NCBI RefSeq assembly: GCF_022539665.2
Contig: NC_081331.1
Coordinates: 11,160,001 to 11,224,000, forward strand
From: Daphnia carinata
Lineage: Eukaryota
Direction of reading: 5' to 3'
DNA length: 64,000 nucleotides
In this document: positions 1 to 57,580 of the stretch, piece after piece
Layout: every line of letters begins with the position of its first letter
Numbering within the stretch: position 1 is the stretch's first letter
Translations under genes and position numbers: made by a program
The notes under the pieces: model-generated
Databases searched by the model: none
What the model was told of the DNA's origin: nothing
The model's input: the letters and a program-made list of their open reading frames with translations, nothing else

Positions 1-2167
1 TGGCTGGAGGAACAATTGAAAAATGGATAAGATAATACAACAAAAGGATGATAAGTATAAACATTATTCTATTTGTTTTGAATTATTAATTATTGTTTAT
101 TAGATCAAATTATGGACCTGCAGGCTCAATTATTGCAACAGCACAAAATATTAGATAACAGCAAAGCTAAGGATGGTAAGGCCTAATACATAATGATTCT
201 ATTTATTTGCTTTTATTGATTTGTGTTTTGTAGCTCAAAGTTTGAGTCTACAAGCTCAGCTAGGGGAAAAGAACAAATTGGAACGGAACAGTTTCCAAAC
301 AGTGAAGGAGGTTTTTCCAAACTCAAACCTGACTGAACATGAGGATGAATTGGCATTAGGCGAACACAGTCAGGTACCTAAACTTTTCAAATAAGAATTC
401 AAAATAAGTATAGAATTTTAACAAACAATTATTTATTGTTTAGTTATTCAGTCTACCACCTGACAGTGTGTTAAATTTAAATTCTGTTAGTGCTGCACAA
501 AAAGAATCGTTAGTAATCAGCCCATGCAGTGAAGGAAGTGAACAATTGTGGGACCGTATTTGGGCCAAAAATGGGTGTGGTATGGAAACCAAGATATGGC
601 ACAAGTTCAACATGAAACATGGATTAGGTACTTTTCGGTTTTATGTCTATTGAAAAAGTATTTTTAATGCTATTATTTTGCATTCACAGTATTTAATGGG
701 GGATCAAATCAAGTCTGGAAGTGTTACAGGATGGAAGAGTCAGCCTACAGATGAAAAAACACTGAGAGTGCATTACCATTAAGGTATGAGGTAAAGTAAT
801 AGAGTATGCAAATTGTCTAATGAGAAGTACCATCTTGTGTTAATGAATCCAGTACAACAGCAATCCTTTATAGTTCTGTCACAGCTAGAAACCTCAAATA
901 ATTCTGCTTCTCTGTCTAAAGAACAACTTGTCCTTTACGTTCAGAGTGTTGGGGAAACTGGGTACTTAAATGGCCCTAAAGATGTTTTAATTTTGCTGCC
1001 ATTGCAGAGATGAACATCATACATGGACTCTTTAGGTATGAAAGGATTTTTCTTCAAATAATTTTGAATTTATGACGAAGCATTTCTCCTCCTTTTTGCC
1101 AACCAGGTCTAATCTACCAAAAAAAATTTTATCCAAAAGGAAAGGATTTTCATGTACTGGGAACACAACTATCAACAATGCAACATTGTACAGGTGCTAG
1201 TTTATCATTCAAGAGCCTTATACAATGATGTTAATCTGCAATTTGTATGTCCTTCCCCAAGCTTCCACCAGAAGTTGAATCTGAGTCATGTAAGTTACAT
1301 GATCAACAGTTGATATGTTTAACGGTGTTGTTTTTCTTTTCTCAATATAGGTTAATAGTAACATTGCATCTGAAAAAATTCTTGGTTGGGGCAAGACACT
1401 GAATAAATTGTATTGATTGGATGGATGACATGACATTTCTATACTTAATTCGGATTCCCCAGACGGTATTTGATATTAAAAAAATTGAAGTGCATATCTG
1501 GGCTCCCTTCTTTTCTGAAGCCCCGTTTCCCCTTGACTCGTAATAAGCCCGTAGGGGGTCATGCCCCTACTGTACGGTATATATAAAAATAACATATACC
1601 GAGGTTTGGAGGGCTCTGGCCGGAAAGGGGACGTGGGGTGCCGCTTAGTCCGATGATGTGTTCACGGAGGGCGATGTGGCTACCCACAAATCCGAACTAA
1701 AGGTTAATCGCTCCTGTAAAAATGTTCCAAATCTTCAGCTCTTCTTCCGGCTTCTCTTAGCCAATCACCGGGTAATCTCCCCGGTGGGTCAACAAGGCAG
1801 TGTCTCCCCCTGCCTGGGTTGACGGCAACTTTTGAAAGGGCTATTGTGCCTTTTTAAAGTTGCAAAAATAATTGTAATGTGCAGAGAATTGTCAATAAAA
1901 TTTTTTTATAAAATATTTTTTGCAAAATTTGTTTCTTTCATTGTCTGTGTTAGCTGTGTTCACACATTACATTTATCAACTTTTTTTTTTTTGTTTTGCT
2001 TTATTTATTTTTGTGACCTGTGATGGTAAGCATTGTTTCCATTGGTTTATCGTTTATCTGTAAGCATTCAATTATTATCCAGGGATCGAACCCTGGATGT
2101 TCGGCGTACCGCGCCGATGCTCTACCAGTGAGCCATGAATCATATGATGACAAGTTGGCTTTTTTCT
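1..2167 (+). mobile_element. Partial copy of the type-A arm of the inverted-repeat element (5' end outside the window; truncated just after the first tRNA-like cassette)
   Basis: Appears identical to 7353-9519 (offset 7352; ORF-track peptides identical). Homologous to 50298-52330 and, in reverse, to 52790-54938. Identity with the 7353 copy stops at ~2168. Confidence 0.85.
2079..2135 (-). pseudogene. tRNA-derived cassette 1 (A box, D arm, anticodon arm with GGT, B box; no acceptor stem)
   Basis: Reverse complement TGGCTCACTGGTAGAGC-A-TCGGC-GCGGTAC-GCCGA-ACATC-CAGGGTTCGATCCCTGG. Confidence 0.75.
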
Positions 2168-4000: not shown

Positions 4001-6520
4001 TATGGCAATCCGTTTTACCAAAACAAAACAAAAAAAAATATCGCATTTTTTTTTCTTTTTTCTCCCTTAGCCATCTACGTCGTCTTGGTAACTACATAAA
4101 TTCGTAATGGTAGCAGCTAGTTAGGACGACGGCAGCTAGCACACACACACAGACAGCAGCAGTTAATAGTTATGGATAGGCTTGACGGTACTGGCGCGCT
4201 AGCATTCTGTCAAATATTCGGTGTAATTTTGTTGTTTGATACTTCAACACATTAAAATAATTCGAAAAAATCCTACATATTGAATCGAATATCTCTTTTA
4301 TTATCAGGTTTCATTATTTTATTAACCTAGATACTCGTTCATGAAATGTAAATTAAATTCGATGACAGCTGAAGAATCGCAACATCAAATTCTTGTATGT
4401 CATACATTTCGTAACGTTCATCCCTCTTCAAGAACTCATAAAAGTGTTTTTGAATTTTTTTTTATTGATTTTCAGGCAATGATTGAAAAAGTCAATAACT
4501 CATCAATGACCACACAAGTTTACGCGAGTGGCGAATTCCTGTTTGGATTTGGGTTTCCCATGCCGCAGAAGAAGGGGAAAGAGTAAACTGGCAACAATGT
4601 AGATCTAAACTCCTTCTCCTGGGTTTTGGCACACAGCAGTCCGAACTTTCTTATTTTGTTACGTTTCCTTCATTAAATAACTAATTGTCGGATTCGCATT
4701 TTACCGTCAATTAGCTTTCACTATTCCTTTTGGTATGTACCAAACAGTGTAAGACAAGGAACTTAAAGGTTGGTGTGCAACAGAGGTTAAAACATTTTGA
4801 AGCATATTGTTTGGATATCTTAAGTGATAGTGATGGGAGCTCCGTTATTTTATTCAGATTCGTAACATCATCAGTTTAATAAATTTTTAAAAGGCTACAT
4901 TCAATTTCTGTAAGAGTGTTCAATGGGAAATACTTCATTTTATGTTTCACTAGGAAAAAAGATGGAAGACTTGTAAATGAAATGCCAAAGTGCTCTCTTG
5001 CAATGCCAAGTAAACCATGAATTGACAGTTCCATGTTAAATTTAATCTATACTTCAACCTTAAACAAACAAATTGTTTTAATCTGTTCAGGTTTCAAGAA
5101 TTAACGTGCTCAACCACATTGCTCTACTGTAAAATGACCAGATACTGCTTTGGTTGCCCATGCCAGTATTTCTCTAGTAAAACACTCTTATGTGAGCTTA
5201 ACGTAAAATTAATCAGCAAAATGTTTTATTACGACACATTTTCTTTCTTTTCATAGCTGAATGGTTGTAGTGAATTTGAAAAGGATTCTCATTGCGGCCA
5301 GCCATCCCAGATTTAAGAAAGGTTGGCAGCAAAGGTGTCAATTTTCATGATTCGTCAATCACATTCCAAGTTGAGGTAGGGGTGTGTTTCTTATTAAATT
5401 TATATTGACTTGATGATGAGTGAAATGATTGCCTAATTACAAATGGCAGCTTGTCTGCAAGTTTACTTTAAACATAACACTTTCACGTACATTTGACACA
5501 GCCAATATTATCCTTATTTGTTCTTAGTTTGCTATTTGGTTGTCTAATTGGAATTTTAGTTTTTGAATGAGATTCAGGGTTGATGTTGCCGGTGTTACAT
5601 TAAAGGATTAAGTTCTTATTCACTAACATTTCAAGGACCAATGTCTTCTTAAAATTTACTTGTAAGTAAAAATGAAGCTTTTATATAATTATGTATTATC
5701 TATGTAACTCTTTCCTATTCAATAGGAAAGGATTTAGTTCATTCTGTGAACATATCTACCAACGATGCAAGCTCCGATGGGACGTATCGTATATTGTGCG
5801 TGTATATATCAAGTCTGTTATGATTTGCAGTATCTCTTCCGAAGCTTCTCTCAGAAGAATATGCTAAGCAATCAACTCACGAATCATATAAGGTACGAAA
5901 TATATATATGAAATCAAGAATTTTTATGCTTAATGGAGTTTTATTGTCTTTTTGTAGAATAATAATAAATTTTAATCTGAAAAGGTTCCTTGTTTGGGGC
6001 AAGGTACTGAATAAAGTATTATGATTGGATACACTACATGGAATTTCCATACTTTATTCACGTTCTCATTTAAAACCGGTATTTAATATTTAAAAAATTC
6101 AAGTGCATATCTGGGCTCCCTTCCTTTCCGTAGCCCCGTTTCCCCTTGACTCATAATAAGCCCGTAGGGGGTCATGCCCCTACTGTACGGTATATATAAA
6201 AAAAACATACACCGAGGTTTGGAGGGCTCTGGCCGGAAAGGGGACGTGGGGGTCCGCTTAGTCCGATGAAGTGTTCATGGAGGGCTCTGTGGCTACCCAC
6301 AAATCCGAATTAAAGGTTAATCGCTCCTGTAAAAATGTTCCATTTCTTCGGCTCTTCTTCCGGCTTCTCTTAGCCAAGCACCGGGTAATCTCCCCGGTGG
6401 GTCAACCAAGGCAGTGTCTCCCCCTGCCTTGGTTGGCGGCAACTTTTGAAAGGGTTGTTTTCCCTTTCGAAAGTTGCAAAATCATTTACGTGTGCAGAGT
6501 AATGTCAATACAATTTTTTT
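4001..6520 (+). mobile_element. Solo type-B arm: same terminus and GC-rich module, different interior
   Basis: Starts TATGGCAATCCGTTTTACC + poly(A) + TCGCATTTT + TAGCCATCTA. Ends in a diverged GC-rich module (~6085-6520). The interior has short intron-like GT..AG segments and a last-exon peptide IIINFNLKRFLVW resembling type-A LIVTLHLKKFLVG. Confidence 0.7.
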
Positions 6521-6544
6521 TATTTAAAAAAAAGCAAGCATATA

Positions 6545-7045
6545 TCTTTTTTACTTTTGTCAAAATCGGAAAAAATCGAAATCTCTCGGATTGCGAAGAA
6601 AATCCCACCGTATAACCCAATTTTAACGCTGATTCAGAAAAAGCCATTTGTTTTTATCTCATGTAAGCCGTTTTTGAAATAATCGTCATTTAAAGATAAA
6701 GTCGGGCTTATTTTTTTAGACCCAACTTCCCCGTTTTTTACGTTTTATTCAAAAACTATGAGTCCCACGAGAAAACAACTCTCATATTCGTGATGCTTGT
6801 TCAATTCTGCATCGAAACCATGTATTTAAAGCGAAATCTAAAATTTTGCCAAAATTGAATAAGTAAGAAGGCCTTCTCACTTTTCCAATTTTCTTCAAAT
6901 CCTAGATTTCAAGAAAAATACACTATTCCGATTTGAAATTGATCGCTGATCACAAAAATGGGGCATATTTTTATATCAGGCCTCTAGTTTTTAAATTAAC
7001 CGTAAAAAACAGAAAGTCGGGCTTATTTAGTCGGGCTTAAAATTT
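6545..7045 (+). repeat. AT-rich dispersed repeat with internal subrepeats (TTTTGTCAAAATCGG.., AACGCTGA.., GTCGGGCTTA)
   Basis: The same motifs recur in the same orientation at 49230-50110 and 55123-55860. Confidence 0.7.
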
Positions 7046-7149
7046 TTATCGGTCAGTGTATGTAGAGAATTAATTAGAAACGTGACCGTTAGATGGCGAT
7101 AGCAGTAAAACAGAAAAAAAAGGCCCATATTTTTTATTTTTATTTTGGG

Positions 7150-7199
7150 TAAAACGGATTGCATATATGGCAATCCGTTTTATATGGCAATCCGTTTTA
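7150..7199. other. End-to-end junction of element termini: 13 bp inverted repeats around a 7 bp spacer, plus a third 13-mer
   Basis: TAAAACGGATTGC-ATATATG-GCAATCCGTTTTA-TATG-GCAATCCGTTTTA read directly. Confidence 0.8.
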
Positions 7200-9430
7200 C
7201 ATAAAAAAAAAAAAAATAAAAAATCGCACTTTTTTCTTTTTTTCCGACACGTAGCCATCTACCGCTCAGACTCATTATTACTGGCGTAGGCAATTTCAGT
7301 CCATTGGATGCCATTCGCAGTTAGTTCAGTAGCGTGGATGGAGGATAACGCGTGGCTGGAGGAACAATTGAAAAATGGATAAGATAATACAACAAAAGGA
7401 TGATAAGTATAAACATTATTCTATTTGTTTTGAATTATTAATTATTGTTTATTAGATCAAATTATGGACCTGCAGGCTCAATTATTGCAACAGCACAAAA
7501 TATTAGATAACAGCAAAGCTAAGGATGGTAAGGCCTAATACATAATGATTCTATTTATTTGCTTTTATTGATTTGTGTTTTGTAGCTCAAAGTTTGAGTC
7601 TACAAGCTCAGCTAGGGGAAAAGAACAAATTGGAACGGAACAGTTTCCAAACAGTGAAGGAGGTTTTTCCAAACTCAAACCTGACTGAACATGAGGATGA
7701 ATTGGCATTAGGCGAACACAGTCAGGTACCTAAACTTTTCAAATAAGAATTCAAAATAAGTATAGAATTTTAACAAACAATTATTTATTGTTTAGTTATT
7801 CAGTCTACCACCTGACAGTGTGTTAAATTTAAATTCTGTTAGTGCTGCACAAAAAGAATCGTTAGTAATCAGCCCATGCAGTGAAGGAAGTGAACAATTG
7901 TGGGACCGTATTTGGGCCAAAAATGGGTGTGGTATGGAAACCAAGATATGGCACAAGTTCAACATGAAACATGGATTAGGTACTTTTCGGTTTTATGTCT
8001 ATTGAAAAAGTATTTTTAATGCTATTATTTTGCATTCACAGTATTTAATGGGGGATCAAATCAAGTCTGGAAGTGTTACAGGATGGAAGAGTCAGCCTAC
8101 AGATGAAAAAACACTGAGAGTGCATTACCATTAAGGTATGAGGTAAAGTAATAGAGTATGCAAATTGTCTAATGAGAAGTACCATCTTGTGTTAATGAAT
8201 CCAGTACAACAGCAATCCTTTATAGTTCTGTCACAGCTAGAAACCTCAAATAATTCTGCTTCTCTGTCTAAAGAACAACTTGTCCTTTACGTTCAGAGTG
8301 TTGGGGAAACTGGGTACTTAAATGGCCCTAAAGATGTTTTAATTTTGCTGCCATTGCAGAGATGAACATCATACATGGACTCTTTAGGTATGAAAGGATT
8401 TTTCTTCAAATAATTTTGAATTTATGACGAAGCATTTCTCCTCCTTTTTGCCAACCAGGTCTAATCTACCAAAAAAAATTTTATCCAAAAGGAAAGGATT
8501 TTCATGTACTGGGAACACAACTATCAACAATGCAACATTGTACAGGTGCTAGTTTATCATTCAAGAGCCTTATACAATGATGTTAATCTGCAATTTGTAT
8601 GTCCTTCCCCAAGCTTCCACCAGAAGTTGAATCTGAGTCATGTAAGTTACATGATCAACAGTTGATATGTTTAACGGTGTTGTTTTTCTTTTCTCAATAT
8701 AGGTTAATAGTAACATTGCATCTGAAAAAATTCTTGGTTGGGGCAAGACACTGAATAAATTGTATTGATTGGATGGATGACATGACATTTCTATACTTAA
8801 TTCGGATTCCCCAGACGGTATTTGATATTAAAAAAATTGAAGTGCATATCTGGGCTCCCTTCTTTTCTGAAGCCCCGTTTCCCCTTGACTCGTAATAAGC
8901 CCGTAGGGGGTCATGCCCCTACTGTACGGTATATATAAAAATAACATATACCGAGGTTTGGAGGGCTCTGGCCGGAAAGGGGACGTGGGGTGCCGCTTAG
9001 TCCGATGATGTGTTCACGGAGGGCGATGTGGCTACCCACAAATCCGAACTAAAGGTTAATCGCTCCTGTAAAAATGTTCCAAATCTTCAGCTCTTCTTCC
9101 GGCTTCTCTTAGCCAATCACCGGGTAATCTCCCCGGTGGGTCAACAAGGCAGTGTCTCCCCCTGCCTGGGTTGACGGCAACTTTTGAAAGGGCTATTGTG
9201 CCTTTTTAAAGTTGCAAAAATAATTGTAATGTGCAGAGAATTGTCAATAAAATTTTTTTATAAAATATTTTTTGCAAAATTTGTTTCTTTCATTGTCTGT
9301 GTTAGCTGTGTTCACACATTACATTTATCAACTTTTTTTTTTTTGTTTTGCTTTATTTATTTTTGTGACCTGTGATGGTAAGCATTGTTTCCATTGGTTT
9401 ATCGTTTATCTGTAAGCATTCAATTATTAT

Positions 9431-9487
9431 CCAGGGATCGAACCCTGGATGTTCGGCGTACCGCGCCGATGCTCTACCAGTGAGCCA
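9431..9487 (-). pseudogene. tRNA-derived cassette 1 (GGT anticodon loop)
   Basis: Identical to 2079-2135; A box TGGCTCACTGG, B box GGTTCGATCCC. Confidence 0.75.
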
Positions 9488-9610
9488 TGAATCATATGAT
9501 GACAAGTTGGCTTTTTTCTAGTCACTTGTGGACTTGCATTTACACTTAGAATAAAACTGAAATGCAATTCTGCAACATACTCTTCTACCTTTATTCTACT
9601 TCATTTTAAC

Positions 9611-9681
9611 ACATCTAGTAAGGTTTGAACCCAGGGTAACAGTTATCGCAGCTGAATGCTCTACCACAGAGCTATGGACAT
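9611..9681 (-). pseudogene. tRNA-derived cassette 2 (degenerate)
   Basis: Reverse complement ATGTCCA-TAGCTCTGTGGTAGAGC...CTGGGTTCAAACCTTAC-TAGATGT. A and B boxes and a partial acceptor stem are present; the anticodon arm is poorly paired. Confidence 0.6.
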
Positions 9682-9784
9682 TATAAAAGCAATACAAAGA
9701 TAAACATATAGTTGTGAAAGACTGCATAAACATCCTAGACGATAACATATGATATGCGATAATAAAAATTTTATATATATCTCG

Positions 9785-9840
9785 TGGCTCAATGTTAGAG
9801 CATCGGCGTTGCACGCTGAATGTCTGAGGATCGATTCCCA
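9785..9840 (+). pseudogene. tRNA-derived cassette 3 (TGC, Ala-like anticodon loop)
   Basis: TGGCTCAATGTTAGAGC-A-TCGGC-GTTGCAC-GCTGA-ATGTCTGAGGATCGATTCCCA; B-box variant GGATCGATTCC. Confidence 0.7.
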
Positions 9841-11139
9841 TGCCAGTAAAACAATATACAAATAAAAAATTACTTCAGAAAATATCAAGGTATTACACGT
9901 TGTTCCTTGTCTAAGTTCATGAATTCAAAAAGTGTAATAAATAATAATTGAATACTTACAGATAAACGATACAACGGTGGCAAAAACAATAAAATTGAAT
10001 TGCGCTAGCTGAATAAAAAAAAAAGTTGATAAATGTAATGTGTGAACACAGACAATGAAAAAAAACAAATTTTGCAAAAATATTTTATAAAAAAAAAATT
10101 ATTGACAATTCTCTGCACATTACAATTATTTTTGCAACTTTAAAAAGGCACAATAGCCCTTTCAAAAGTTGCCGTCAACCCAGGCAGGGGAGACACTGCC
10201 TTGTTGACCCACCGGGGAGATTACCGGTGATTGGCTAAGAGAAGCCGGAAGAAGAGCTGAAGATTTGGAACATTTTTACAGGAGCGATTAACCTTTAGTT
10301 CGGATTTGTGGGTAGCCACATCGCCCTCCGTGAACACATCATCGGACTAAGCGGCACCCCACGTCCCCTTTCCGGCCAGAGCCCTCCAAACCTCGGTATA
10401 TGTTGTTTTTATATATACCGTACAGTAGGGGCATGACCCCCTACGGGCTTATTACGAGTCAAGGGGAAACGGGGCTACGGAAAGGAAGGGAGCCCAGATA
10501 TGCACTTCAATTTTTAAATAATTAATACCGTAATACGCGGGAATACACAGGCGACTGATGGAGGGAAATTCAATTCCGTACTTCAAATTATTATAACTTT
10601 TCGTTATCACATCCCAACCAGAAACCTTCGCAGGTTCACTATTGCTATTAATCTAAATTAAGAAAATAAAACATAGATAAGCATGAGACGTTCTTATTGA
10701 TATCGCTTACATGGTACATAAATTCATCATCTGCCATATTCCTGTAGATTCCTGGCAGGAGGTTCTAAAAGGCTATGCAGTTGCAAATGATCACCATAGC
10801 CAAAACTTGAATACGAAAGTTTTGGGAGAACCTTTCGTGTTGGCCACAGAGACCTTACATGGGCTTTCCGATTGGACGTTCCATGCACCTTAAAAAAAAA
10901 AAAAAGAAAGGTTACATAGTGGTTGTTTTGATCACTAAACGTGAAGGTAAAGAAGGTACATGGTCTCGGCAGTCTTGACGACAATTTCCATTATAACCTC
11001 ATATCACCTCATTTTATGGGAAAAGAATTTCGTAGGCGACGGTTCAGAATAGAAAATGGTTGCATTCAAATCTTTTGGCAGGTGGGAATAAGGCATGTCG
11101 CCTTAGGGAGTGCAAACCGCGATTTTCAAAACTATTAAA

Positions 11140-11995
11140 TGCTTGTTAGCCATTGAAAGATTGCTGGCTGACGCAGACAATCGTTTGGGACATGATTAAT
11201 GAGCTGCTTCGTGGATAAAGCTCGTTTTTTTAGTCCTCTCCAGGATGACATGAATTCCAGCATCTTCTACACATGTATCAGCACTTTGCGATACACCAAT
11301 TAAAACAATTTAAAAATTTAAAATAGTACCACCTTTTAATGTTTTTGACTCCATGATTCATCTTCGATGCAATTGTGAAGGCAAGACAACTGACCTATGG
11401 TGATTTATTCATCACACTTGCCATAACCGTTTTCCCAATGTATCAGCTATTCTGCCAACAGTAGTTTACTAATACAACATTGACGATTAAAATTAGAAAA
11501 CTAAACAAACTCAGCAGAAAAGCATTACCAGGGAGTAACATCTTGCATGTTGAAGAAGAATCCTTGGTTTATCATGTACATGGCAGAATATCCACATTGC
11601 CTGGATGGCGCAATCCTTTGCATAATCACACAAATAGTAACTAAAACATACTGAATTGAAACAAAATTTAAATGAAGTTTTACCCAACAGCCGCCTGCAC
11701 CTCTGAATTCCAAAACTACGTCTACACATTCATATCAAGCTTTTCCAGCATGTCTCACCTTTGGCATTTGTTTAAATCATTCCTTCAAAAATTTTTAATA
11801 AATGTAAATAAAGTAAACAATTGATATTTATGTGACGTCGGAGTACCATTTGGCTATCAAGCATTCCATACAAGATAGGCATTTTGAAGAATCAGTGGCA
11901 GCAATCAAGTGCTACAATTTGAATATGGGCTAGGTGTTATAGTCGCTGAGGGCTCTCAATCCCTAAACTGAACCTTGCTCACTGATGTGACAATC
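11140..11995 (-). pseudogene. Decayed intron-containing Crypton-like (DUF3504/ZMYM-type) tyrosine recombinase
   Basis: Minus-strand exon fragments in canonical order: EQG/SLGIESPQRL (11980-11940), DYAKDCAIQAMWIF..RILLQ (11640-11530), CW..YIGKTVMASVMNK..KMNHGVK (11460-11340), EDAGIHVILERTKK/RALST (11267-11210). Contains stops and frameshifts. The whole arm-Y gene spans roughly 10590-12185. Confidence 0.5.
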
Positions 11996-12245
11996 TATAA
12001 AAGGATTTAAATCTTAATTAATGAGACATGCAGGATACTGTATAAAATTCTAGTAAAGATGGTACCAAATGCTGAGTTACTAGAAATTTTGCCTGGGAAA
12101 TCTCCAACTGACCATGTGAAACATAAGTCAGCTGTACTGCATTTGCAAATCCATTGTTCAAGTAACCAAATCCAATCCATGTCTGAAGGAATGAATGAGA
12201 AAATTAAATAGGAATCTGGCCGCTAGATGGCCATAGCTGTAAAAA

Positions 12246-15878: not shown

Positions 15879-17039
15879 ACAAGGCAAGACACCTGTGTCT
15901 TGGCGAAATAGTATCTGTTGGTGTGGAAAAGTACTAGCTTGTGTCATTGTTCTGTGTTCATTTGATATGCTGTAGTTTGGCTTGTCTGAGCTGTTGTAAA
16001 GACGTGTTACTCGCACATCATACTTGGACTAAACGTATTATAAACTATATTTACGTGTAAACATCGTTTCCACTAAATTACGTTGACGTTACAATAGCTG
16101 TGTAGGATTTACCACAAGCACGGATTTACAAACCCTGTTTTACATCCCATGTAAGGTAATGAAGTGAAGAATTTTAACATACATTCGGATTCTGCGTTTC
16201 GAAGAAAAGACGAAAAAGCATGCAACATTGTTGATTTGCAAAGCTTAATACTCGCAAGTGCTGCCTTCGACTAGCATGGCTTTCCGCCTAAGAAACTATG
16301 TGAAAAGTGATTATTTGGCATAAAACGTTGGAAATTGATAACTTTAGAAAGCCCTTTTTGGTCACCATTGTTGCAACGCTACTACCGAAAAGGGAAAACC
16401 AGCTAAAGGGCACGATCGCATAACATAGAACATCGGGCGACTCATTGAATCAAGAGGCTTTATGGGTCAACAGAATAACAATGGCCGACTTCAACATGTA
16501 AATCCTATTAACATAAAAACGGGATGAGATCTTGCAAAGGTAAAAGACCACAATAGACAATAAATAAACATATCTGAAGGCTTTACGCGTTCCAACGCCG
16601 AACAATGCTCCAATGTTTAAAATTCCAGGTTACACATAGCTTACAAAACGTACTCAAATGAAAGTCCGTCTTCCGCATTTTCGGTAAATATTGGTAGATT
16701 TAGTGTGGGAAAAATGACAAGTCATCTGTACTCTAGGTGAAAGAAAAAAGAAACCAATTTTTCAGTAGAATCCAGGAAATGTTTGGAAGTGAGATAAGTC
16801 GGCCGTCATATACCTATCAACAACGCTGTGAACACATCAATTAGCTCGAACACCATGGTGAAAGGGCGCGACATTGAACCAATCAGTTCCATTCTTCTCG
16901 ATGCTATAGGCAAGCAAACATCTGAACGAGGGAGTCATCGAGCCTCGGATAGTCTTTTCCTCCACACCCACTGGGCGCATTGATGGCAACTGCCTGACAG
17001 CCTGACGAGTTTGCTTTCAACATTGTGAAGCGGTACGAG

Positions 17040-27543: not shown

Positions 27544-29048
27544 CTAAACCTTGATGGCTTTCATCTTAGGCATTCGCTTTTTGGCCATTCGTTTGGCCTC
27601 CTTTTCCTCCCATTTACGCTGCTTTTCGGGATCATCGTCTTGGAGAATCTTCTCTTTTTCCAGACGACGCTTTTCTTCGCGTCGGGCGGCGGCAGCTTCA
27701 GCTCGGGCCACGTGTGTCGACTTGAGGAAAGCTTCTTCCACCTTTTGACGGTTCTTATCCGCCTTCATTTTGGACTCTTTGCTCAGGCGGAACCGTTTAA
27801 CACGCTCCATGCAGTAAAAGGTCAACATGATGGCCGGCCGGATGTTTTCCACCGCGTCAGCGATGCTCTTACCTGAGGAAAAAGAAGAAAACAAACCATG
27901 TTATTCGGGCTACTTAGTGTACAATCTGAAACCTTACCATTTTTTAAAGGCAAGTTGAAATTGAAGATGAGCATCTTCTTCACCTCAGGCATCTTACTCG
28001 GGGCCGTATCTTCCGTCTGCTTGGGCCCAGAATACTGATCTGAGAAGTGAATGGATTCGATGACTTCTGGGATGTTATTGATGAGTGAGCACACGCGAAC
28101 ATCCAGTAAAGTGGAGGAAGCTTCACCGATTTCCGACATGAGGACAAAATTGGCTGGTAAACCGAACTTGTCCACAGCTGATTTTTTCTCGGGACAATAA
28201 ACGCTGATGTCTGCCATCTCCCTGATAAGTCGGGTGGCTGTCTTCTTGGCAGCTAGGCACATGACGTACGTGTCCATATCAAGATCGTTCATAAAAACTT
28301 TAACGTGCACCTGATCTTGCACTGGCCGGAAGAAGCTCATCACCATTGCCACAAGATCTTGCCGTTTCAAGAGCCGCAGCTCAAAGAGAACGGCTTCACA
28401 AGCAGTTCTACCACTACACCAAAGAAGGTAAACATTTTCTGACTCCTTCAAGAGGCCAGGTTGGCTGTTTTCCAACTTGCCATCATCCCCAACCAAAGCA
28501 AAATTCTCCTGCAGAGGTCCTTTGAAGGCAGCATACCATGTCTCAGCAATTCGTTGATTTTTGCTACGGCCAACAAAGAAGTTGAAGAAATAGAGAACAA
28601 GACCAGCAAGAATCATGAGTTCCAAGTAGTAGCTTTCCCAGTTGGAGCGTAGATGAGCTGGCAGCTGGGCAAAAGTAATTTTGGGTCCCTCGTTCAATTT
28701 GAGATCAGGTTTGGATGTAGAGTCTTTCTCATATCCCTCATACTCGTCTTCATCAACATGTTCAAATTCGTTATCTTCTGTCTCTACAGTTGCTTCTTCT
28801 TCATCAGCTATTGCTGTTTCTTTATATTGTTCTGGAGTTGATGGTTCTTCATGATCGTGAACCATATTTTTCTGATCAGAGGCCACCCCACCAACTACAT
28901 CCTCCACATCAAAATCTTCAAATTCCGCAAATTCATTGTCTTCGATATCTAAATGATTAATTCCTGCGTTTGCTATGTTATACGAGACAAATAGTAGAGT
29001 TAAAGCAAATATAGTAAGCCAGTGAGAGCGGTCGACCGGCGACGACAT
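27544..29048 (-). CDS. CCDC47: PAT complex subunit CCDC47 (calumin), two coding exons
   Basis: Signal peptide, DNEFAEFE acidic region, PAHLRSNWESYYLE, NFALVGDDG, LWCSGR, LKRQDL, IHFSDQYSG, basic C-terminal coiled coil. Intron 27873-27937. Confidence 0.94.
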
Positions 29049-47067: not shown

Positions 47068-48755
47068 ATGGTCCTCAGCAACGAAAATACAGGATTCTCG
47101 ATGCGTCCCTTGACAAATCTCATAACATCGTCGGAAAGCAATAACACGTTCGGGGAGAACTTCTCTATAATGCTTCGGTAACCAGTCGATAAATGCCGAA
47201 GAGGACATTTCAACTACAAAATTCTATCTTTATAGGTGGAAGAGAAGTGTGTACAAATTACTTTGGAAACACATGCTAATCTACTTCCTAGTCTACATAT
47301 CGCTAAGCATTATCGACCAATTCATCCTTCCCGAAAACGGGAAAAGGTATTTACCTTCTCAGTTTACAAACGCTCTTCTCTTTCCATATACTCATTTTGG
47401 AATTTTCTGCTAAAAGGAATTTCAGAGTTCTGGCCGAACATTGTTCTCGCTATTCGGGGAGTATAAATCTGATGGTCATGTTGGGATTTTTTACATCAAC
47501 AGCCATGCAACGCTTATTCTCCATGCAAACCACAATACCTGGCACTGCCAAATCAATTACCACATTCATTTCGTCTTTGAAACCAGACCTGATTGAGGTG
47601 AAAACATTCATTTTGGTGATAGCTTTTCAAGTAATTTTTTCTGGTGCATCCAAAGGGATCGATGATAATCGAGCAATTTACCCGATGGCAGTTACTCGCA
47701 TGGGTCCTTACTTTTCGTCTCGTCTGTCGACCGCTACGTAAAATTTACCCCGATTTTAAGTCTTTGGAAGCTGCAGGTCACTTTGTTAGCTTGCTACAAT
47801 TCTGTATTGTTCCACTAATTTTTTTCCCTTCATCTAGGACTATTGACGCCGGAGGAGAGGGGAATTCTGGAAGACCCCAATCAGACAAAGCAAAGTACAC
47901 CTTGCGTCCTTGTTGTTTTCGATTGTAAGGAACATTAAAGACATTGCATACCACAATTTTTCATTTGATTTCTTAAAATAAAGGGATGCTGTTGCTGTTA
48001 AAGGAAACCTTCATACAAAAACGATACTTCAATGAAAGCAATTATTTGAAAAATGTGGACGCACTCATGGCATTTAAAAAAAGCTGTGGTAACGTGATTA
48101 AATTTGCCATACAGAACATTTCTCCTGCTCTCGTACAGGTGCAGCCTCTAAGTGAAACCTTTTTTTTCTCATCAACGCAATTTCACGTGTAATTTCACTT
48201 ATTTAGGCTGTCGTTTTGTCTGTTTACTGTTTTGGATGTATTACTGTTATGGCCCGTATGTTTAGCAAGGAAAATGCTCCTATGTCTAGCGCCTTCATTT
48301 CCTACGTTCCAGTACTACCAGCCATGCAGGTAGTAGATAAAAGGAGGAAGTCTGATTTATGTCAACAGCTAACTAATGTTTATCCCGTCAATGGTTGCAG
48401 TTCTTTATTTATTTCGCCTGGCTCTGTTTTGGCAAAGCTGCGCTAGATCCTTTGGAGATGACGAAGACGATATTGATGTCCCCCAAATGGTCAAACTACA
48501 TATCGAGGTAAGTAAAGCTGATTGTACATGAGTTTGAAACTTTATACTTCTTTTTCAAATCAAATCGTTGAATAAAAATACAACAATTTTCTAGAACGCT
48601 GAGAGATTAAAAGGTCTTTACGGAATGCATCTCGAGAAAGTTTTTCCTAACTTGGTAAGCGCTTCGACATAGTTTTCATCTAAAAATTCGTGCTGATAAA
48701 AACGTCTGTTCTAACATTACAGCCACAAAAACACTATAATTCAACCCCCGTATAA
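47068..48755 (+). CDS. Divergent bestrophin-family anion channel (multi-exon, short C terminus)
   Basis: RWKRSVYKLLW, INLMVMLGFFT, LRKIYPD..LEAAGLLTPEE, ISPALVQAVVLSVYCF, FFIYFAWLCFGKAALDPFGDDEDDID (Ca2+ clasp); stop TAA at 48753-48755. Confidence 0.88.
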
Positions 48756-49229
48756 GGTAGTTTACGAACTTCAAAGGTGTGGAACAGAATGCCAAATACA
48801 TCGCAAAAAAATTTGCATTTTTCGTTACTCCAGAAGAAATTCTCTATACTGTGATCAGCAACCGAACAAAAAAAGCCCACTTTCTCTTTGTAGTTCAAAT
48901 CTTAAAATATTAAGGCTTCCTTCGAAGCAAAATGCCCTTCTTGTCTTTTTGTTATTTTTCCTTTACTGGTTGAAAAACATTTATGAATAAACAAGAAATC
49001 TGTCGTCTTGTTTTCACCGGTGGAATTTCACGAATGCAACAGACAAAAATTTAAGTTCGATATACATTTGGTTATCTTAAATGTTGCGGAACCCATTCTT
49101 CCATGTATGATGTATCAGAAGGAATCCTTAGCACGATTCTGGATCCACAACACACATTACAGCTCTTGGAATGCAATAAAAGTAAAGAAGTGAATGATGA
49201 AGTGTTGTTAGTGCCCTCAAACTTAATTT

Positions 49230-50110
49230 TTGGTTTTATACGTTTAATTAAAAAACTATAAGACCCATTGGAAAATGAACTTGATTTCCGTGATTTTCAT
49301 TCAATTTTGAATCGAAATCATGTATTTCAAGTGATATTTAAATTTTGACCAAAAATCAAAAAGTGGGAAGGCTATGGCCTTCCTTCTTTTGTCAAAATCC
49401 GCAAAAAATGAAAACCCCTAGAAACCGATAAAGATCACACTGCACGACTCAAATCAAACGCTGAATTCGATCGAATGGTTTATTTTCTCGTCAAACCAAC
49501 TGTTTTTTGCAATAAACGGAAACAAAATGCTGGTATGGCACATATTTAGGTTTGTTGTTTTTTACGATTTATTAAAAAACTATAAGCCGTAGAAAAAAAT
49601 AGACGAAAAAATATGTGATTTGCATTTAATTTTGAAGCTAAATCATGTATTTTTATAGCTATACCTAGATGTTTCGAAAAAAATTAAATAGGCGATAAGG
49701 CCGGGCTTATTTTGTCGGGCTTAATTTTTAGTACGGCAGAAATTCAGTCTTGTAATTTTGACATTAAATTTGATTTAAATTAATCTAAAATAAAGCGTTG
49801 ATTTCAGGAAAAATATTTGTTTTCTCGTCAAGCCAGCCGTTTGTGTAATAAATGAAATTAACGCGAATCTGGCGCGCCAGCAATTATCGTCCGGTAGCTC
49901 CATATAGCCTTACCACTTTTGTCAACATCGGCCAAAAACGGCATCTCTTGAAATTGAAAAAATCACACGACATAATCAGAATTGAACGCTGACTTTGATT
50001 AAGTGATTTTTTTTCTCAGCCGATTTTGAAATAAAAGGAACAACGGGCTTTCGGCGCACCAACTTTATGTTCTGGTTTTTACATTTTTAAAAATAAATGT
50101 AAGCCTAATG
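49230..50110 (+). repeat. AT-rich repeat, left flank of the foldback element
   Basis: Shares subrepeats with 6545-7045 and 55123-55860 (GAAGGCTATxGCCTTCCTxCTTTTGTCAAAATC, GTCGGGCTTA). Confidence 0.7.
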
Positions 50111-52450
50111 GAATATGGCAATCCTTTTTATATGGCAATCCGTTTTACATAAAAAAAAAAAAAAAATCACACTTTTTTCTCTTTTTTCTACCCGTAGCCA
50201 TCTACCAGTCGGTTTCGTTATTATAGGCATGTAAGCAATTTGAGTTAATTGTATCCCATTAGCAGTTAATTGAGTAGCGTGGCTGGAGAAAAACTCGTGG
50301 CTGGAGGAACAATTGAAAAATGGATAAGATAATACAACAAAAGGATGGTAAGTATAAAGATTATTATATTGGTTTTCAATTATTAATTATTGTTTATTAG
50401 ATCAAATTATGAAGCTGCAGGCCCAATTATTGGAACAACACAAAATATTGGATAACAGCAATGCTAAGGATGGTAAGGCCTAATACGTAATGATTCTATT
50501 TATTTGCTTTTATTCATTTGTGTTTTGTAGCTCAAATTTTGAGTCTACAAGCTCAGCTAGGGGAAAAGAACAAATTGGAACGGAACAGTTTCCAAACAGT
50601 GAAGGAGGTTTTTCCAAACTCAAACCTAACTGAACGTGAGGATGAATTGGCATTAGGCCTAAACTTTTCAAATAAGAATTCAAAATAAGTATAGAATTTT
50701 AACAAACAATTATTTATTGTTTAGTTATTCAGTCTACCACCTGACAGTGTGTTAAAGTTAAATTCTGTTAGTGGTGCACTAAAAGAATTGTTAGTAATAA
50801 GTCCATGCAGCGAAGGAAGTGAACAATTGTGGGACCGTATTTGGGCTGAAAATGGGTGTGGTACGGAAACCCAGAAATAGCACGAGTTCAACATAAAACA
50901 TGAATTAGGTACTTTTCGGTTTTTTGTCTATCAAAAGAGTATTTTTAATGCTATTATTTTGCATTCACAGAATTTTAGTGGGGGATCAAGTCAAGTCTCG
51001 AAGTGTAACAGGATGGAAGAGTGAGCCTACAGTTGAAAAACACTGAAAGTGCATTACCATTAAGGTATGAGGTAAAGTAATAGAGTATGCAAATTGTCTA
51101 ATGAGAAGTACCATCTTGTGTGAATGAATCCTGTGTAACAACAATCCTTTATAGTTCTGTTATAGCTAGAAGCCTCAAATAATTCTGCTTCTCTTGCTAA
51201 AGAACAACTTGTCCTTTACACTCAGAGTGTTGGTGAAGCTGGGTACTTAAATGGCCCTAAAGATGTTTCACTTCACTGGCATTGCAGCGATGAACATCAT
51301 ACATGGACTCTTTAGGTATGAAAGGAATTTTCTTGAAAAATTTTTGAATTTATGATGAAGCTTTTCTCCTCCTTTTTGCCAACCATGTCTAATCTACAAA
51401 AAAAAAATTATCCAATAGGAAAGGATTTTCAGCATACTGGGAACACAACTATCAACAATGCAACATTCTAGGGGTGTTATTTTATCCTTCAAGAGCCTTA
51501 TACAATGATTTTCATCTACAATTTGTATGGCCTTTCCCGAGCTTCTGCCAGAAGTTGAATCTATGAGTCATGTAAGTCACATGAGCAACAATTGAGATGC
51601 TTAATGGTGTTGTTTTTCTTTTCTCAGTGTAGGTTAATAGTAACATTGGATCTGAAAAAATTCTTGGTTGGGGCAAGACACTGAATAAATTGTTGTAATG
51701 ATTGGATGGATGACATGATATTTCTATACTTCATTCGGATTCCCGAGACGGTATTTGATATTTAAAAAATTGAAGTGCATATCTGGGCTCCCTTCCTTTC
51801 CGTAGCCCCGTTTCCCCTTGACTCGTAATAAGCCCGTAGGGGGTCATGCCCCTACTGTACGGTATATATAAAAACAACATATACCGAGGTTTGGAGGGCT
51901 CTGGCCGGAAAGGGGACGTGGGGTGCCGCTTCGTCCGATGATGTGTTCACGGAGGGTGACGTGGCTGCCCACAAATCCGAACTAAAGGTTAATCGCTCCT
52001 GTAAAAATGTTCCAAATCTTCAGCTCTTCTTCCGGCTTCTCTTAGCCAATCACCGGGTAATCTCCCCGGTGGGTCAACAAGGCAGTGTCTCCCCCTGCCT
52101 GGGTTGACGGCAACTTTTGAAAGGGCTATTGTGCCTTTTTAAAGTTGCAAAAATAATTGTAATGTGCAGAGAATTGTCAATAAAATTTTTTTTATAAAAT
52201 ATTTTTTGCAAAATTCGTTTCTTTCATTGTCTGTATTCGCTGTGTTCACACGTTACACTTTTTATATTTAGCTTGCTTAATTCACCTTTATTGTTTTTGT
52301 CACCTTTGATGGTAAGCATTGTTTCCATTGGTTTATCGTTTATCTGTAAGTATTATTTATTACACTCTTTGAATTTGAGAGACTCTCTCTTGAGATTCAA
52401 GGAACAATCTGGATATTTTATGAAGTAATTTTGTATTTTGTTTTAATCGT

Positions 52451-52507
52451 ATGGGAACCGATCCCCAGACATTCAGCGTGCAACGCCGATGCTCTAACAT
52501 TGAGCCA
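52451..52507 (-). pseudogene. tRNA-derived cassette 3 (TGC)
   Basis: Reverse-complement homolog of 9785-9840. Confidence 0.7.
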
Positions 52508-52617
52508 CGAGATACATCTAAATATTTTATTATCGCATATCATATGTTATCGTCTAGGATGTTTATGCAGTCTTTCACAACTATATGTTTATCTTTCTTT
52601 TGCTTCCATAAGGTTCT

Positions 52618-52681
52618 TAGCTCTGTGGTAGAGCTTTTATCTGCGATACCTGTTACCCTGTGTTCAAACCTCAGTAGATGT
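52618..52681 (+). pseudogene. tRNA-derived cassette 2 (degenerate)
   Basis: TAGCTCTGTGGTAGAGC...GTGTTCAAACC; homolog of 9611-9681. Confidence 0.55.
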
Positions 52682-52805
52682 GTAAAAATGAAGTAGAATA
52701 ATGTAGAAGAGTATATTGCAGAATTGCATTTCAGTTTTATTCTAAGTGTAAATGCAAGTCCACAAGTGACTAGAAAAAAAAGCCAACTTAAAATCATATG
52801 ATTCG

Positions 52806-52862
52806 TGGCTCATTGGTAGAGCATCGGCGAGGTATGCCGAACATCCAGGGTTCGATCCCTGG
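52806..52862 (+). pseudogene. tRNA-derived cassette 1 (GGT)
   Basis: TGGCTCATTGGTAGAGC-A-TCGGC-GAGGTAT-GCCGA-ACATCCAGGGTTCGATCCCTGG. Confidence 0.75.
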
Positions 52863-55122
52863 ATAATAATAGAATGCTTACAGATAAACGATAAACCAAT
52901 ACCCGTCACCTTACCATCAAATGTGACAAAAACAAATAAAGCAAAGCCAAAAAAAAAAAATTGATAAATGCAATGTGTGAACAAAGCTAACACAGACAAT
53001 GAAAGAAACGAATTTTGCAAAAAATATTTTAGAAAAAAAATTTTATTGACAATTCTCTGCACATTACAATTATTTTTGCAACTTTAAAAAGGCACAATAG
53101 CCCTTTCAAAAGTTGCCGTCAACCCAGGCAGGGGGAGACACTGCCTTGTTGACCCACCGGGGAGATTACCCGGTGATTGGCTAAGAGAAGCCGGAAGAAG
53201 AGCTGAAGATTTGGAACATTTTTACAGGAGCGATTAACCTTTAGTTCGGATTTGTGGGCAGCCACGTCACCCTCCGTGAACACATCATCGGACGAAGCGG
53301 CACCCCACGTCCCCTTTCCGGCCAGAGCCCTCCAAACCTCGGTATATGTTGTTTTTATATATACCGTACAGTAGGGGCATGACCCCCTACGGGCTTATTA
53401 TGAGTCAAGGGGAAACAGGGCTTCAGAAAAGAAGGGAGCCCAGATATGCACTTCAATTTTTTTAATATCAAATACCGTCTGGGGAATCCGAATTAAGTAT
53501 AGCAATGTCATGTCATCCATCCAATCAATACAATTTATTCAGTGTCTTGCCCCAACCAAGAATCTTTTCAGATCCAATGTTACTATTAACCTATATTGAG
53601 AAAAGAAAAACAACACCGTTAAACACATCAATTGTTGATCATGGAACTTACATGACTCATAGATTCAACTTCTGGTGGAAGCTTGGGAAAGGACATACAA
53701 ATTGCAGATTAACTTCATTGTATAAGGCTCTTGAATGATAAACTAGCACCTGTAGAATGTTGCATTGTTGATAGTTGTGTTCCCAGTACATGAAAATCCT
53801 TTCCTATTGGATAAAATTTTTTTTGGTAGATAAGACCTGGTTGGCAAAAAGGAGGAGAAATTCTTCGTCATAAATTCAAAATTATTTGAAGAAAAATCCT
53901 TTCATACCTAAAGAGTCCATGTATGATGTTCATCTCTGCAATAGCAGCAAAATTAAAACATCTTTAGGGCCATTTAAGTACCCAGTTTCCCCAACACTCT
54001 GAACGTAAAGGACAAGTTGTTCTTTAGACAGAGAAGCAGAATTATTTGAGGCTTCTAGCTGTGACAGAACTATAAAGGATTGCTGTTGTACTGGATTCAT
54101 TAACACAAGATGGTACTTCTCATTAGGCAATTTGCATTACTCTATTAATTTACCTCACACCTTACGGTAATGCACTCTCAGTGTTTTTTCATCTGTAGGC
54201 TCACTCTTCCATCCTGTAACACTTCCAGACTTGATTTGATCCCCGTTAAAATCTGTGAATGCAAAATAATAGCATTAAAAATACTTTTTCGATAGACAAA
54301 AAACCGAAAAGTACCTAATCCATGTTTCATGTTGAACTTGTGCCATTTCTGGGTTTCTGAACCACACCCATTTTCGGCCCAAATACGTTCCCACAATTGT
54401 TCAGTTCCTTCACTGCATGAGCTTATTACTAACGATTCTTTTAGGGCAGCACTAACAGAATTTAAATTTAACACACTGTCATGTGGTGGACTGAATAACT
54501 AAGCAATAAATAACTGTTTTTTAAAATTCTATACTTATTTTGAATTCTTATTTGAAAACTTTAGGTACCTGGCTGTGTTCGCCTAATGCCAACTCATCCT
54601 CACGTTCAGTTAGAGATGAGTTTTGAAAAACCTCCTTCACTGTTTGGAAACTGTTCCGTTCCAATTTGTTCTTTTCCCCTAGCTGAGCTTGAAGACTCAA
54701 AATTTGAGCTACAAAACACGAATGAATAAAAGCAAATAAATAGAATCATTACGTGTTCGGCCTACGATCCTTAGCTTTGTTATCTAATATTTTGTGTTGT
54801 TCCAATAACTGGGCCTGCAGCTTCATAATTTGATCTAATAAACAATAATTAATAATTGAAAACCAATATAATAATGTTTATACTTACCATTTTTTTGTTT
54901 TATTATCTTATCCATTTTTCAATTGTTCCTCCAGCCACGCGTTGTTCTCCAGCCACGCTACTCAATTAACTGCTAATGGGATACAATTAACTGAAATTAC
55001 TTACATGCCTGTAATAACGAAACCGACTGATAGATGGCTACGGGTAGAAAAAAGAGAAAAAAGTGCGTTTTTTTTTTTTTCCGCCATTTTTTTTTTTTTT
55101 TTATGTAAAACGGATTGCCATA

Positions 55123-55860
55123 AAAAACGACATCTCTTGGAATTCGACAAAAATCCCAGAGTATAATCAAAATTTGACGCTGATTTCGATTCAGTGATTG
55201 GTTTTCTCATTAGAGCAGCCGTTGCAAAAATAGTTAGAAAACAAGATATATTTCTGCTGCATCACGCTAGCGCTGTAGCGTACTGGCGCGCTAGCATGGC
55301 GATACATATTCGATGTATTTCAAAAACAATTGACTTAATGAAAAAAATAGCAATTTTCCCACAATTAGCATTCAATTTTGCGTATATCCTGTAGTATTCA
55401 ATCAACTCTGATGAGTTTCAGTTTTTGCAGAAAAAAAATTTTAAGTCCGACTAAATAATAAGCCCGACTAAATAATAAGCCCAATTTTTTTTTATTTTTT
55501 CGTTTTTTACGTTTATTTTAGAAATCATGAGGCCAATTGGAAAATAAATTTGATTTTCGTAACCAGCACTCAATTCTCAATCGAAATCGTGTATTTTAAG
55601 TGAAATTTAGATTTTGGCCAAAAATGAAAAAGTGAGAAGGCTATAGCCTTCCTACTTTTGTCAAAATCGGACAAAAAAGACATGTCTTGAAATTCGACGA
55701 AAATCGCACAGTGTAATGAAAATTGAATGCTGATTACTATTCAGCTATTGGTTTTTTCATTAAACCAACCATTTAAAAAATAAAATAAAATAAAGAGATG
55801 TTAGCAACCCAACAAACCCACCAAAAACTCGAGCTTATTTTGTCGGACTTATTTTTTGAA
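55123..55860 (+). repeat. AT-rich repeat, right flank of the foldback element
   Basis: Same subrepeats and orientation as 49230-50110. Confidence 0.7.
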
Positions 55861-56203: not shown

Positions 56204-57580
56204 TCAATTAAAAGCGAGGTCGGCATGAATTTGTAGCTCTGTCGAATTGATAAGATGGTCCACAGCTGGCAGGACCTCTGTCGCTTCCACACTGCCCATT
56301 AGCTTGCAGGAAATCGTTCGGTCGGCAACCGAATCCAGGCCTAGACGGCCGATGGACATCACGTGTTGGTCTGCTCGGGCTGTAAACAAGAATTCAAAAT
56401 CAGATATTTTTGTTTCGAACAGAATGAAGGGCAAGAAGCTTACACCAAAGGATTTGTGCACTTGAAATTGTTTCCGTTACGATTGCCCAGTTGACAGGGA
56501 TTCAGCATAGATGTCGGGAATACACTGCTTTGTTGAACTATTCCAAAACTAGCTTGTCTCCGGTTCCTCGATAGCTGTTGACTTCGAAAAAATGTAACAC
56601 TCTTTTTTACGGGTTCTTCAGATGTGTGATTGTAGAGCTCGTCTAAAAGAGCATTTTCCTTTGATGAAGAAAAATACGGTGTCGTTGGATCCTCTATGTT
56701 GAGACACTGTCCTTCAGCCTGAAAGATATTGTAACCGAAGAGTTCAGAATACGAGCAAGGACCACGAGTTCCTAAAGCATAGCAGAAGCCATCATCATCA
56801 TCATCATAGCCTATGGTCCTCGATTCTTTAGCAGGCACGAGTTGCAGGAGAAAATCTTGATAGTATCTGTCAAGAGATGGACAAGTGTTGGAACCGCATT
56901 CCAATTTTCCCGACGAACTGACTGTCACCACTTTATCGTATGGACACGGTCCTGTAGAGAAATCGGTGCGAGAAATTAAAATCGAAATCCAACAAATGAT
57001 TTCGTCATGTTTTTGTACCTTGAGTAAACAAAGGAACGCAATCATCTTTATCCGAAGGGAAAGGATATTGTCCAATCGGACAATCGCATATTGGATCTCC
57101 GTAAGCTGAGTAATATAGACGTCGACCTCCCTGGCATTCGTACGTATCGTAGATATCGTGACAAAGCCCGTCGCGACCAACAAATACTCGTTCTCTGCCA
57201 CACAAGCGAGGAGTGCATTTTCCCTGAAAGTAGAACAGAAAAAATTGATTGATTGCACGTTTTATACATTAAGAATTTTCGGTTATCGAAAAAGTACCCA
57301 CCTCGTAGGTATACGGGTCGACCGTTACCCAGTACAGCAAACTTTTGCACGGTCCTTTTTTCAAAACAGGGTAACAATATCCGTCGTCCTTAAATCGAAC
57401 AGCGTAGTCTCCGCAACCATCATCAGGGAATGAAGCATTTGATGGCTTTTTGTTTTGGGGAATGCTTGCAGCATCATAAGTTGGATAACTATTATAAGAA
57501 GTTCCAGGGGAGCTGGGGTAGGTTGAATTGCTTGCCAATGCCAGTGAGAAAGCAGCCATAAATATCACTGCGGCAAACAT
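56204..57580 (-). CDS. Cys-rich DUF4789-like secreted protein, paralog 3 (4 exons)
   Basis: MFAAVIFMAAFSLALAS signal; [67 protein letters not shown]. Confidence 0.82.

Follow-up and report, generated by a model that had tools for sequence, protein, structure and literature searches.

Within-element identity of inverted structured modules in a two-armed repeat element of Daphnia carinata

Identity between the arms of each element

A 64,000-nucleotide stretch of the Daphnia carinata genome (RefSeq assembly GCF_022539665.2, contig NC_081331.1, positions 11,160,001 to 11,224,000; hereafter the window) holds copies of a two-armed element of about 5 kb. In each complete copy the two arms end inward in inverted, structured modules, and the two modules of a copy match each other more closely than they match those of the other copy. 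The observation is real and not an obvious artefact. We give slightly better than even chances to the explanation that the match within copies arose by occasional gene conversion from arm to arm, without crossover, on a near-uniform conserved module of what is likely a non-autonomous IS3EU-type element. The homogenization is most likely ordinary conversion, seen once, with the other arm of the same element as the favored donor; from two copies alone, a special mechanism of copying cannot be demonstrated. The features on which this account depends are as follows.

50114..55122, copy 2, whole two-armed element of about 5 kb, ends TATGG..CCATA
51748..52196, plus strand, structured module of the left arm of copy 2 (52% GC, serial hairpins)
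51826..52193, plus strand, 368-bp tract without any difference between the arms of copy 2, letter for letter the same as 53033-53400, containing the four diagnostic sites
53030..53478, minus strand, structured module of the right arm of copy 2 (diagnostic sites 53294, 53269, 53266, 53259)
7166..12245, copy 1, order reversed relative to copy 2 by its spacer, right limit approximate
4001..7165, copy 3, with an internal deletion: left end, gene C (a distant paralog), module 6076-6524, insert resembling a MITE (a transposable element of the miniature inverted-repeat kind), right end
1..2167, plus strand, gene A, module 1463-1910, and transfer RNA (tRNA)-like head 1, duplicating 7353-9519 at 100% identity

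Copy 2 is ordered as terminal repeat, gene A directed inward, module, spacer, module, gene A directed inward, and terminal repeat. Copy 1 is made of gene A, a module at 8815-9262 (+), a spacer, a module at 10085-10531 (-), gene B, and a damaged right end; gene B is a distant paralog of gene A, alignable with it only close to the module. Copy 3 has one module only and has kept both ends, the right one adjoining the left end of copy 1. The left and right arms of copies 1 and 2 are denoted c1L, c1R, c2L, and c2R.

Four diagnostic sites separate the two complete copies. They lie at 51932, 51957, 51960, and 51967 in c2L, equivalent to 8999, 9024, 9027, and 9034 in c1L, and both arms of copy 2 carry four alleles missing from both arms of copy 1. 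In copy 2, GCCGCTTCGTCC is found at 51925 (+) and 53290 (-) and GGGTGACGTGGCTGCCC at 51954 (+) and 53256 (-); the copy-1 forms of these strings are at 8992 and 9021 (+), at 10344 and 10310 (-), and in the duplicate at 1640 and 1669. A preliminary description of this DNA, made from its letters alone, had quoted the strings and the four sites, and all were found where it had placed them in both copies. The alignment of modules that it had proposed paired the arms within copies in a 358-bp core: c2L and c2R were separated by no substitution (100%) and c1L and c1R by one substitution and two 1-bp gaps (99.7%), as compared to 4-5 substitutions between copy 1 and copy 2 (98.6-98.9%) and 29-33 between copy 3 and the other copies. 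Over the approximately 230 bp upstream of the core, identity between arms was 90.9% in copy 2 and 62.3% in copy 1; over the inner flank it was about 85%. Six modules had been counted originally. The one near 1470 falls in the perfect duplicate and is therefore the 8820 module repeated, which leaves five independent modules and two complete pairs.

At each of the four sites the allele of copy 3 is that of copy 1, and a single transfer, in one lineage, is therefore enough for the whole pattern. Genes A, B, and C lie at roughly equal distances from one another (62-73%); the paired B-side module is at most 1.1% from the A modules, and the unpaired module of copy 3 is 8-9% away.

Identity of this kind would also result if one arm had been corrected with reads from the other during assembly or polishing. 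That the perfect duplicate at 1-2167 cuts a host gene, and that the two 1-bp gaps of c1R fall in G and C runs, speak for such an error. We nevertheless judge it very unlikely: the arms of copy 2 show differences as far as the edges of the tract (51809, 51825, and 52194), those of copy 1 differ inside it, the two loci have different alleles instead of one genome-wide consensus, and both haplotypes likely exist as contigs in a public sequencing run (X1, below). The duplicate joins the 5' half of a gene (2168-3900, minus strand) that we take from its translation to be WDR91-like, and apparently cuts it; this junction results from a recent rearrangement or else from a mis-join.

Mosaic ancestry along the arms

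Sites were counted three ways over the three alignable arms, c1L, c2L, and c2R. Within the outer 300 bp, c2L grouped with c2R (30 sites versus 6 and 6). Mid-arm, the grouping was c1L with c2R (75 sites versus 16 and 24); in the core it returned to c2L with c2R (5 sites versus 0 and 0), and in the inner flank it was mostly c1L with c2R again (20 sites versus 5 and 13). For informative sites in the core as compared to mid-arm (5:0 versus 16:75), Fisher's test gave p=0.0003, with sites that are not independent. Blocks of ancestry such as these are incompatible with one tree and hence require that sequence was transferred; the recombination signal is more than chance would give. The preliminary description had proposed that the inner repeats are copied from each other or recombine. 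Transfer is upheld by the tree-incompatible blocks and by a copy-1 core of 99.7% identity set against gene ends of 62%; the narrower part, copying between the arms of one element, is favored only, and one event suffices.

The second tract in which c2L equals c2R runs from 50170 to 50470, with its mirror near 54780-55080, and spans the edge of the terminal repeat and the first exons. Divergence of the outer arms of copy 2, as described earlier, is thus not uniform. Three things point, in favor of the preferred reading, to the partner arm as donor: this outer tract, a B-side module nearly identical to its A-side partner despite gene ends only 62% alike, and how far the one unpaired module has diverged.

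A variant just upstream of the core had been said to track arm position in both copies. It pairs c1L with c2R and so tracks side only after copy 1 has been reoriented according to its spacer. One form, CCTTTCCGTAGCC, is also present in the third copy (6123), which makes it the likely ancestral state. In both copies the markers flanking the module remain in phase with the spacer, which is consistent with conversion without crossover and contains no hint of the spacer flipping that had been suggested.

The family in reads and proteins

X1 is a public sequencing run, represented by contigs only (0.37 of words), that may not be independent of the source of the window; depths at the diagnostic block come from 8 of 43 pieces, and contig depth is not copy number. 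An 80-nt contig of depth 443 differs from copy 1 by four letters over 8969-9048. One of these is named (8999 A>C) and we infer that the remaining three are the other diagnostic sites, so that the copy-2 haplotype is likely present in the X1 reads. Among the pieces listed, depths at the block were 354-423 for the copy-1 type, 233-433 for a third type, and 1328-1977 for neighboring single contigs. The four alleles are likely one haplotype carried by some 25% to 33% of modules, in rough terms. Reading X1 depths as rough shares, the sum of squared haplotype frequencies is about 0.26-0.32, and two elements would agree within themselves by chance with a probability of 0.07-0.10; the within-element signal exceeds chance only modestly. 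Module stretches of 98 nt and 136 nt were single X1 contigs (depths 1328 and 1556), and the junction of gene B with the module was also found there, with a loose end at 51765. The spacer center had very low depth in X1 and was not used as evidence. A second run, X2, gave two module pieces, one of 162 nt with 0 differences and one of 169 nt with 12.

One arm-gene exon matched 9 of 10 candidate clusters, with 51 member sequences, all from Daphnia carinata. The 36 listed members sit on contigs with ten distinct lengths, and the family is therefore dispersed. D. magna and D. sinensis have weaker homologs, among 10 matches at E<=0.001 of which two are from D. carinata and one is likely due to chance. 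P0044 was taken as a chance match. Among 37 family proteins, 149 of 210 informative column pairs show four gametes, a count to which recurrent mutation and gene-model errors can add, and the share rises with distance, from 57% of near pairs to 85% of far pairs (permutation p=0.0005). Identical proteins with neighboring ids (696842/3, 686672/3, 692407/8, and 704040/1) were not counted as paired arms, because near-consecutive ids can lie on different contigs (691168 and 691170). The host genome is compact, with introns of about 70 bp. Exact DNA scans returned no match in viral contigs and none in metagenome contigs; a second exact pattern hit one locus, a bacterial coding sequence, which was rejected as chance.

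These data bear on whether the modules evolve in concert across the whole family, the conserved module being exchanged among dispersed copies and the two elements agreeing with themselves by chance or because their arms belong to single subfamilies. We regard this as possible but doubtful. It would account for the module stretches that form single deep contigs, for a diagnostic block at which three haplotypes have similar depths, for mosaic proteins over ten contigs, and for a copy 2 without target duplication; copy 2 itself may be an ectopic recombinant of two insertions. Precedents exist in the accessible text of two reports: copies of the Pokey transposon recombine in Daphnia (PMC3575242), and both intra- and inter-chromosomal homogenization has been proposed for inverted repeats of C. 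tropicalis (PMC4741521). Its cost is a coincidence of roughly 1 in 10, and both the within-copy tract in the outer 300 bp and the divergent, unpaired module of copy 3 point instead to the partner arm.

The structured module

The module is about 450 bp long, with 52% GC as compared to 34% around it. In each gene it comes immediately behind the last exon, and it ends at AATAAA; in the left arm of copy 2 this signal is at 52179, and a TATA-like run is at 51863. On either strand the module gave a better fold than any of 100 shuffles (z -4.2 and -4.9), and it had no Rfam match. As a coding exon it was rejected: no third-position bias was seen in any of six frames, and a 91-codon frame open in the copy 2 module is closed in copies 1 and 3. 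Variable pairs in hand-set helices are G-U on the sense strand of the gene five times and A-C once, a weak hint that could point to RNA of the sense strand. The module is likely a structured 3' element of the transcripts of the arms.

Proposed mechanism

The mechanism would be as follows. Copies would have been moved by a transposase supplied in trans, and the module would have stayed conserved through selection acting on it as a folded 3' RNA element in transcripts of the arms. As the sole long near-identical stretch between the arms, 830 bp from its partner, the module would have been able to pair. Repair of a break or stalled fork would occasionally have been templated by the partner arm, without crossover. 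Because the module alone is alike enough and near enough to pair, conversion would be self-reinforcing there while the flanks drift. One event in the copy-2 or the copy-1 lineage would have moved the four-site block as a unit. Patchy arm-to-arm conversion is known from willow W palindromes, as far as the available text goes (PMC7023750).

Several points weigh against this account. There are only two complete elements and one linked marker, and the agreement within copy 1 may be plain retention, since copy 3 has the copy-1 alleles. The chance figure given above is not small, the X1 haplotypes are similar in contig depth (443, 354-423, and 233-433 among the pieces listed), and a family that recombines widely has donors available elsewhere. 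Target duplication was scored at copy 2 only, since copy 3 adjoins copy 1, which has a damaged right end; at copy 2 no 6-bp duplication was found, only a 2-bp AA match among lengths 2-10; the flanks of copy 2 are MITE-like and apparently rearranged. As for the folded element, changes on both sides of a pair occur in 1 of 123 pairs (minimal covariation), both strands fold well, and the helices, making up 144 of 355 columns, hold 8 of 25 substitutions, which is not clearly a depletion.

The copying might alternatively be programmed, the arms folding back in a single-stranded or replicated transposition intermediate and the module being copied or corrected from its partner, as in long terminal repeats (LTRs) or in DIRS or viral inverted terminal repeats (ITRs). 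The homogeneous tracts of both elements do begin at nearly the same place, no more than about 25 bp apart (past 8870 in copy 1 and past the equivalent of 8892 in copy 2), and end at the A/T run, and the abutted ends at 7149-7183 resemble the end-to-end junctions of copy-out/paste-in transposition described, in the part of the report at hand, for an IS256-family element (PMC7780238). The tract limits, however, coincide with the near-uniform zone of the family, so that no program is needed, and neither an internal complementary region nor a reverse transcriptase or recombinase domain was found in the element. We consider programmed copying improbable. A bolder version, in which the modules of an IS3EU-type family are copied in each round of transposition and form a fixed exchange site that swaps the passenger genes A, B, and C, would make this a cut-out or copy-out transposon of eukaryotes, with the module as the hinge of a gene cassette and as a new structured RNA or DNA element; this too seems unlikely.

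Anatomy of the copies

The other features of copy 2 are listed by position.

50114..50130, plus strand, extra 17-bp repeat of the start of the terminal repeat, also at 7166-7182
50131..50205, plus strand, left terminal inverted repeat, about 75-90 bp
50320..51700, plus strand, left gene A arm, short introns, end approximate
52452..52510, minus strand, tRNA-like head 2, pointing outward, below the Rfam gathering score
52615..52676, plus strand, tRNA-like head 3, degenerate, without Rfam tRNA match
52803..52861, plus strand, tRNA-like head 1, D arm to T arm without acceptor stem, pointing outward
53520..54915, minus strand, right gene A arm, end approximate
55030..55122, minus strand, right terminal inverted repeat

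The first exons of the left gene A of copy 2 match a D. carinata family of proteins of 131-180 aa; stops and frameshifts are present in its later exons. Genes B (10532-12200, minus strand) and C (4300-6075, plus strand) are intron-rich, apparently broken paralogs of gene A and share with it no more than the last exons and the junction with the module. For gene B, homologs were sought with a single exon frame, and none of 14 candidates passed.

The ends of copies 3 and 1 meet without spacer (7149-7200), and c1L and c2L both start with a 17-bp duplication of the terminal repeat. Insertion beside element ends is a habit of IS911-type elements, and the abutting ends and 17-bp duplications may reflect insertion of this element beside its own ends. 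At the element ends are clusters of palindromic, MITE-like repeats belonging to two or more families (6526-7045, 12246-12523, 49223-50105, and 55123-55860), and one of them interrupts the right end of copy 1.

The three tRNA-like heads in the spacer are 65-74% alike; two are weak Rfam tRNA matches, and ARAGORN called no tRNA gene among them. Heads 1 and 2, on opposite sides, are directed outward, and the spacer is thus in part an old, diverged continuation of the arms. At the inner edge of the terminal repeat (7086-7097 and 12223-12234) is a motif that we presume to resemble the CTCF consensus; with the B-box-like tRNA heads, this putative site may mean that the element carries sites of insulator type.

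Ends, domains, and affiliation

All intact ends read TATGG..CCATA (TATGG at 50114/50131, 4001, and 7166/7183; CCATA at 55118-55122), although they can also be read as GG..CC ends flanked by an AT duplication. The terminal inverted repeats, at about 75-95 bp, exceed the 30 bp by which IS3EU and GingerRoot are recognized. A D. magna homolog of arm exon 4 continues into a helix-turn-helix, with nearest models that include integrase-core clusters of rva_4, which we take to be tied to IS3EU; the D. magna homolog of exon 3 runs on into a ubiquitin-like fold that occurs in clusters where 27-37% of members carry HECT. Both matches were below the tool's bar. The D. magna sequence P0038 resembles a transposase N-terminus; it had no Pfam match and retrieved no longer relatives. 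Within the element, none of 221 frames had a Pfam domain at E<=0.01, a search whose power is limited by short exons, and gene C was scanned against Pfam only. In the available portions of the literature, IS3EU families have TA..TA ends and usually 6-bp duplications (PMC10045372), fungal IS3EU have TAYGG..CCRTA ends and genes in opposite orientation (PMC12730594), and GingerRoot has terminal repeats of 100-150 bp (PMC6839031). The element probably works like a non-autonomous IS3EU derivative and likely belongs to that group, against which count the missing 6-bp duplication at copy 2 and the lack of a Pfam domain.

Significance and neighboring genes

The family supplies at least 51 annotated "uncharacterized" proteins of D. 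carinata. Its paired, close inverted repeats, together with a three-way marker, constitute a natural test of cis versus trans conversion in one genome; if it is true that copying is tied to transposition, they would also give new insight into the replication of these elements.

Elsewhere in the window are at least three DUF4789-like paralogs (17981-18821, 22561-23366, and 56440-57258; 67-77% alike in DNA), two of which match the Pfam domain. Host genes recognized by Pfam are a CCT chaperonin (23853-24488, minus strand), CCDC47 (27822-29048, minus strand), and a bestrophin (47397-47741, plus strand); 14146-15880 (plus strand) is by our reading saccharopine dehydrogenase-like.

Comparison with known systems

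The architecture of the element looks undescribed: searches of the open literature found no account of it, though Repbase, subscription journals, and supplements lay outside the search and a Repbase entry may exist. The 2-micron plasmid inverts by FLP/FRT between two inverted repeats. The likeness to it that had been proposed extends to two inverted repeats of a few hundred bp and no further, as no recombinase domain was found in 221 of 221 reading frames and in neither copy was the spacer seen inverted. Foldback elements are non-autonomous, with long inverted arms around a short loop, and share these traits with the Daphnia element; their arms contain tandem subrepeats, whereas those described here carry intron-rich genes between IS3EU-like ends. 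Penelope-like elements and retrozymes have a hammerhead ribozyme in their repeats; neither a hammerhead nor another ribozyme was among the five Rfam matches at E<=10 in 51700-53100.

The preliminary description had also likened the homogenization to that of LTRs and ITRs, a comparison that falls away: the repeats are inverted and internal, and the 221 frames contain no gag-pol domain. DIRS1-like ITRs, in the text accessible to us (PMC3266345), share with the module a strictly complementary part beside a divergent part of the inverted repeat. They stand at the ends of their elements, and the matched repeats of the Daphnia element are 1.6 kb inside its DDE-type ends. Module compared with both spacers gave only A/T-rich matches of <=17 nt, not internal complementary regions, and open reading frames for reverse transcriptase/RNase H and tyrosine recombinase were absent from all 221 frames.

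With IS3EU and GingerRoot the element shares TATGG..CCATA ends, terminal repeats of about 90 bp, a length of about 5 kb, opposed genes, and dispersal over ten contigs. It differs in that no transposase domain was found in its 221 frames and no 6-bp duplication was seen at copy 2, and in arms that are paralogs of one gene; the inner inverted module and the tRNA-like heads are absent from the available parts of the cited descriptions.

The palindromes of the mammalian Y and willow W chromosomes (PMC7023750, in its accessible part) likewise have inverted arms, a short spacer, and patches of derived alleles common to both arms. By the measure used there, derived alleles in both arms that are absent from the counterpart, copy 2 has four such sites, with copy 3 as an outgroup in the ancestral state, all in one linked block for which other donors are possible. 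Set against the palindromes of that report, the Daphnia arms are 2.2 kb long instead of tens of kb, are mobile and multi-copy, and have escaped conversion over most of their length.

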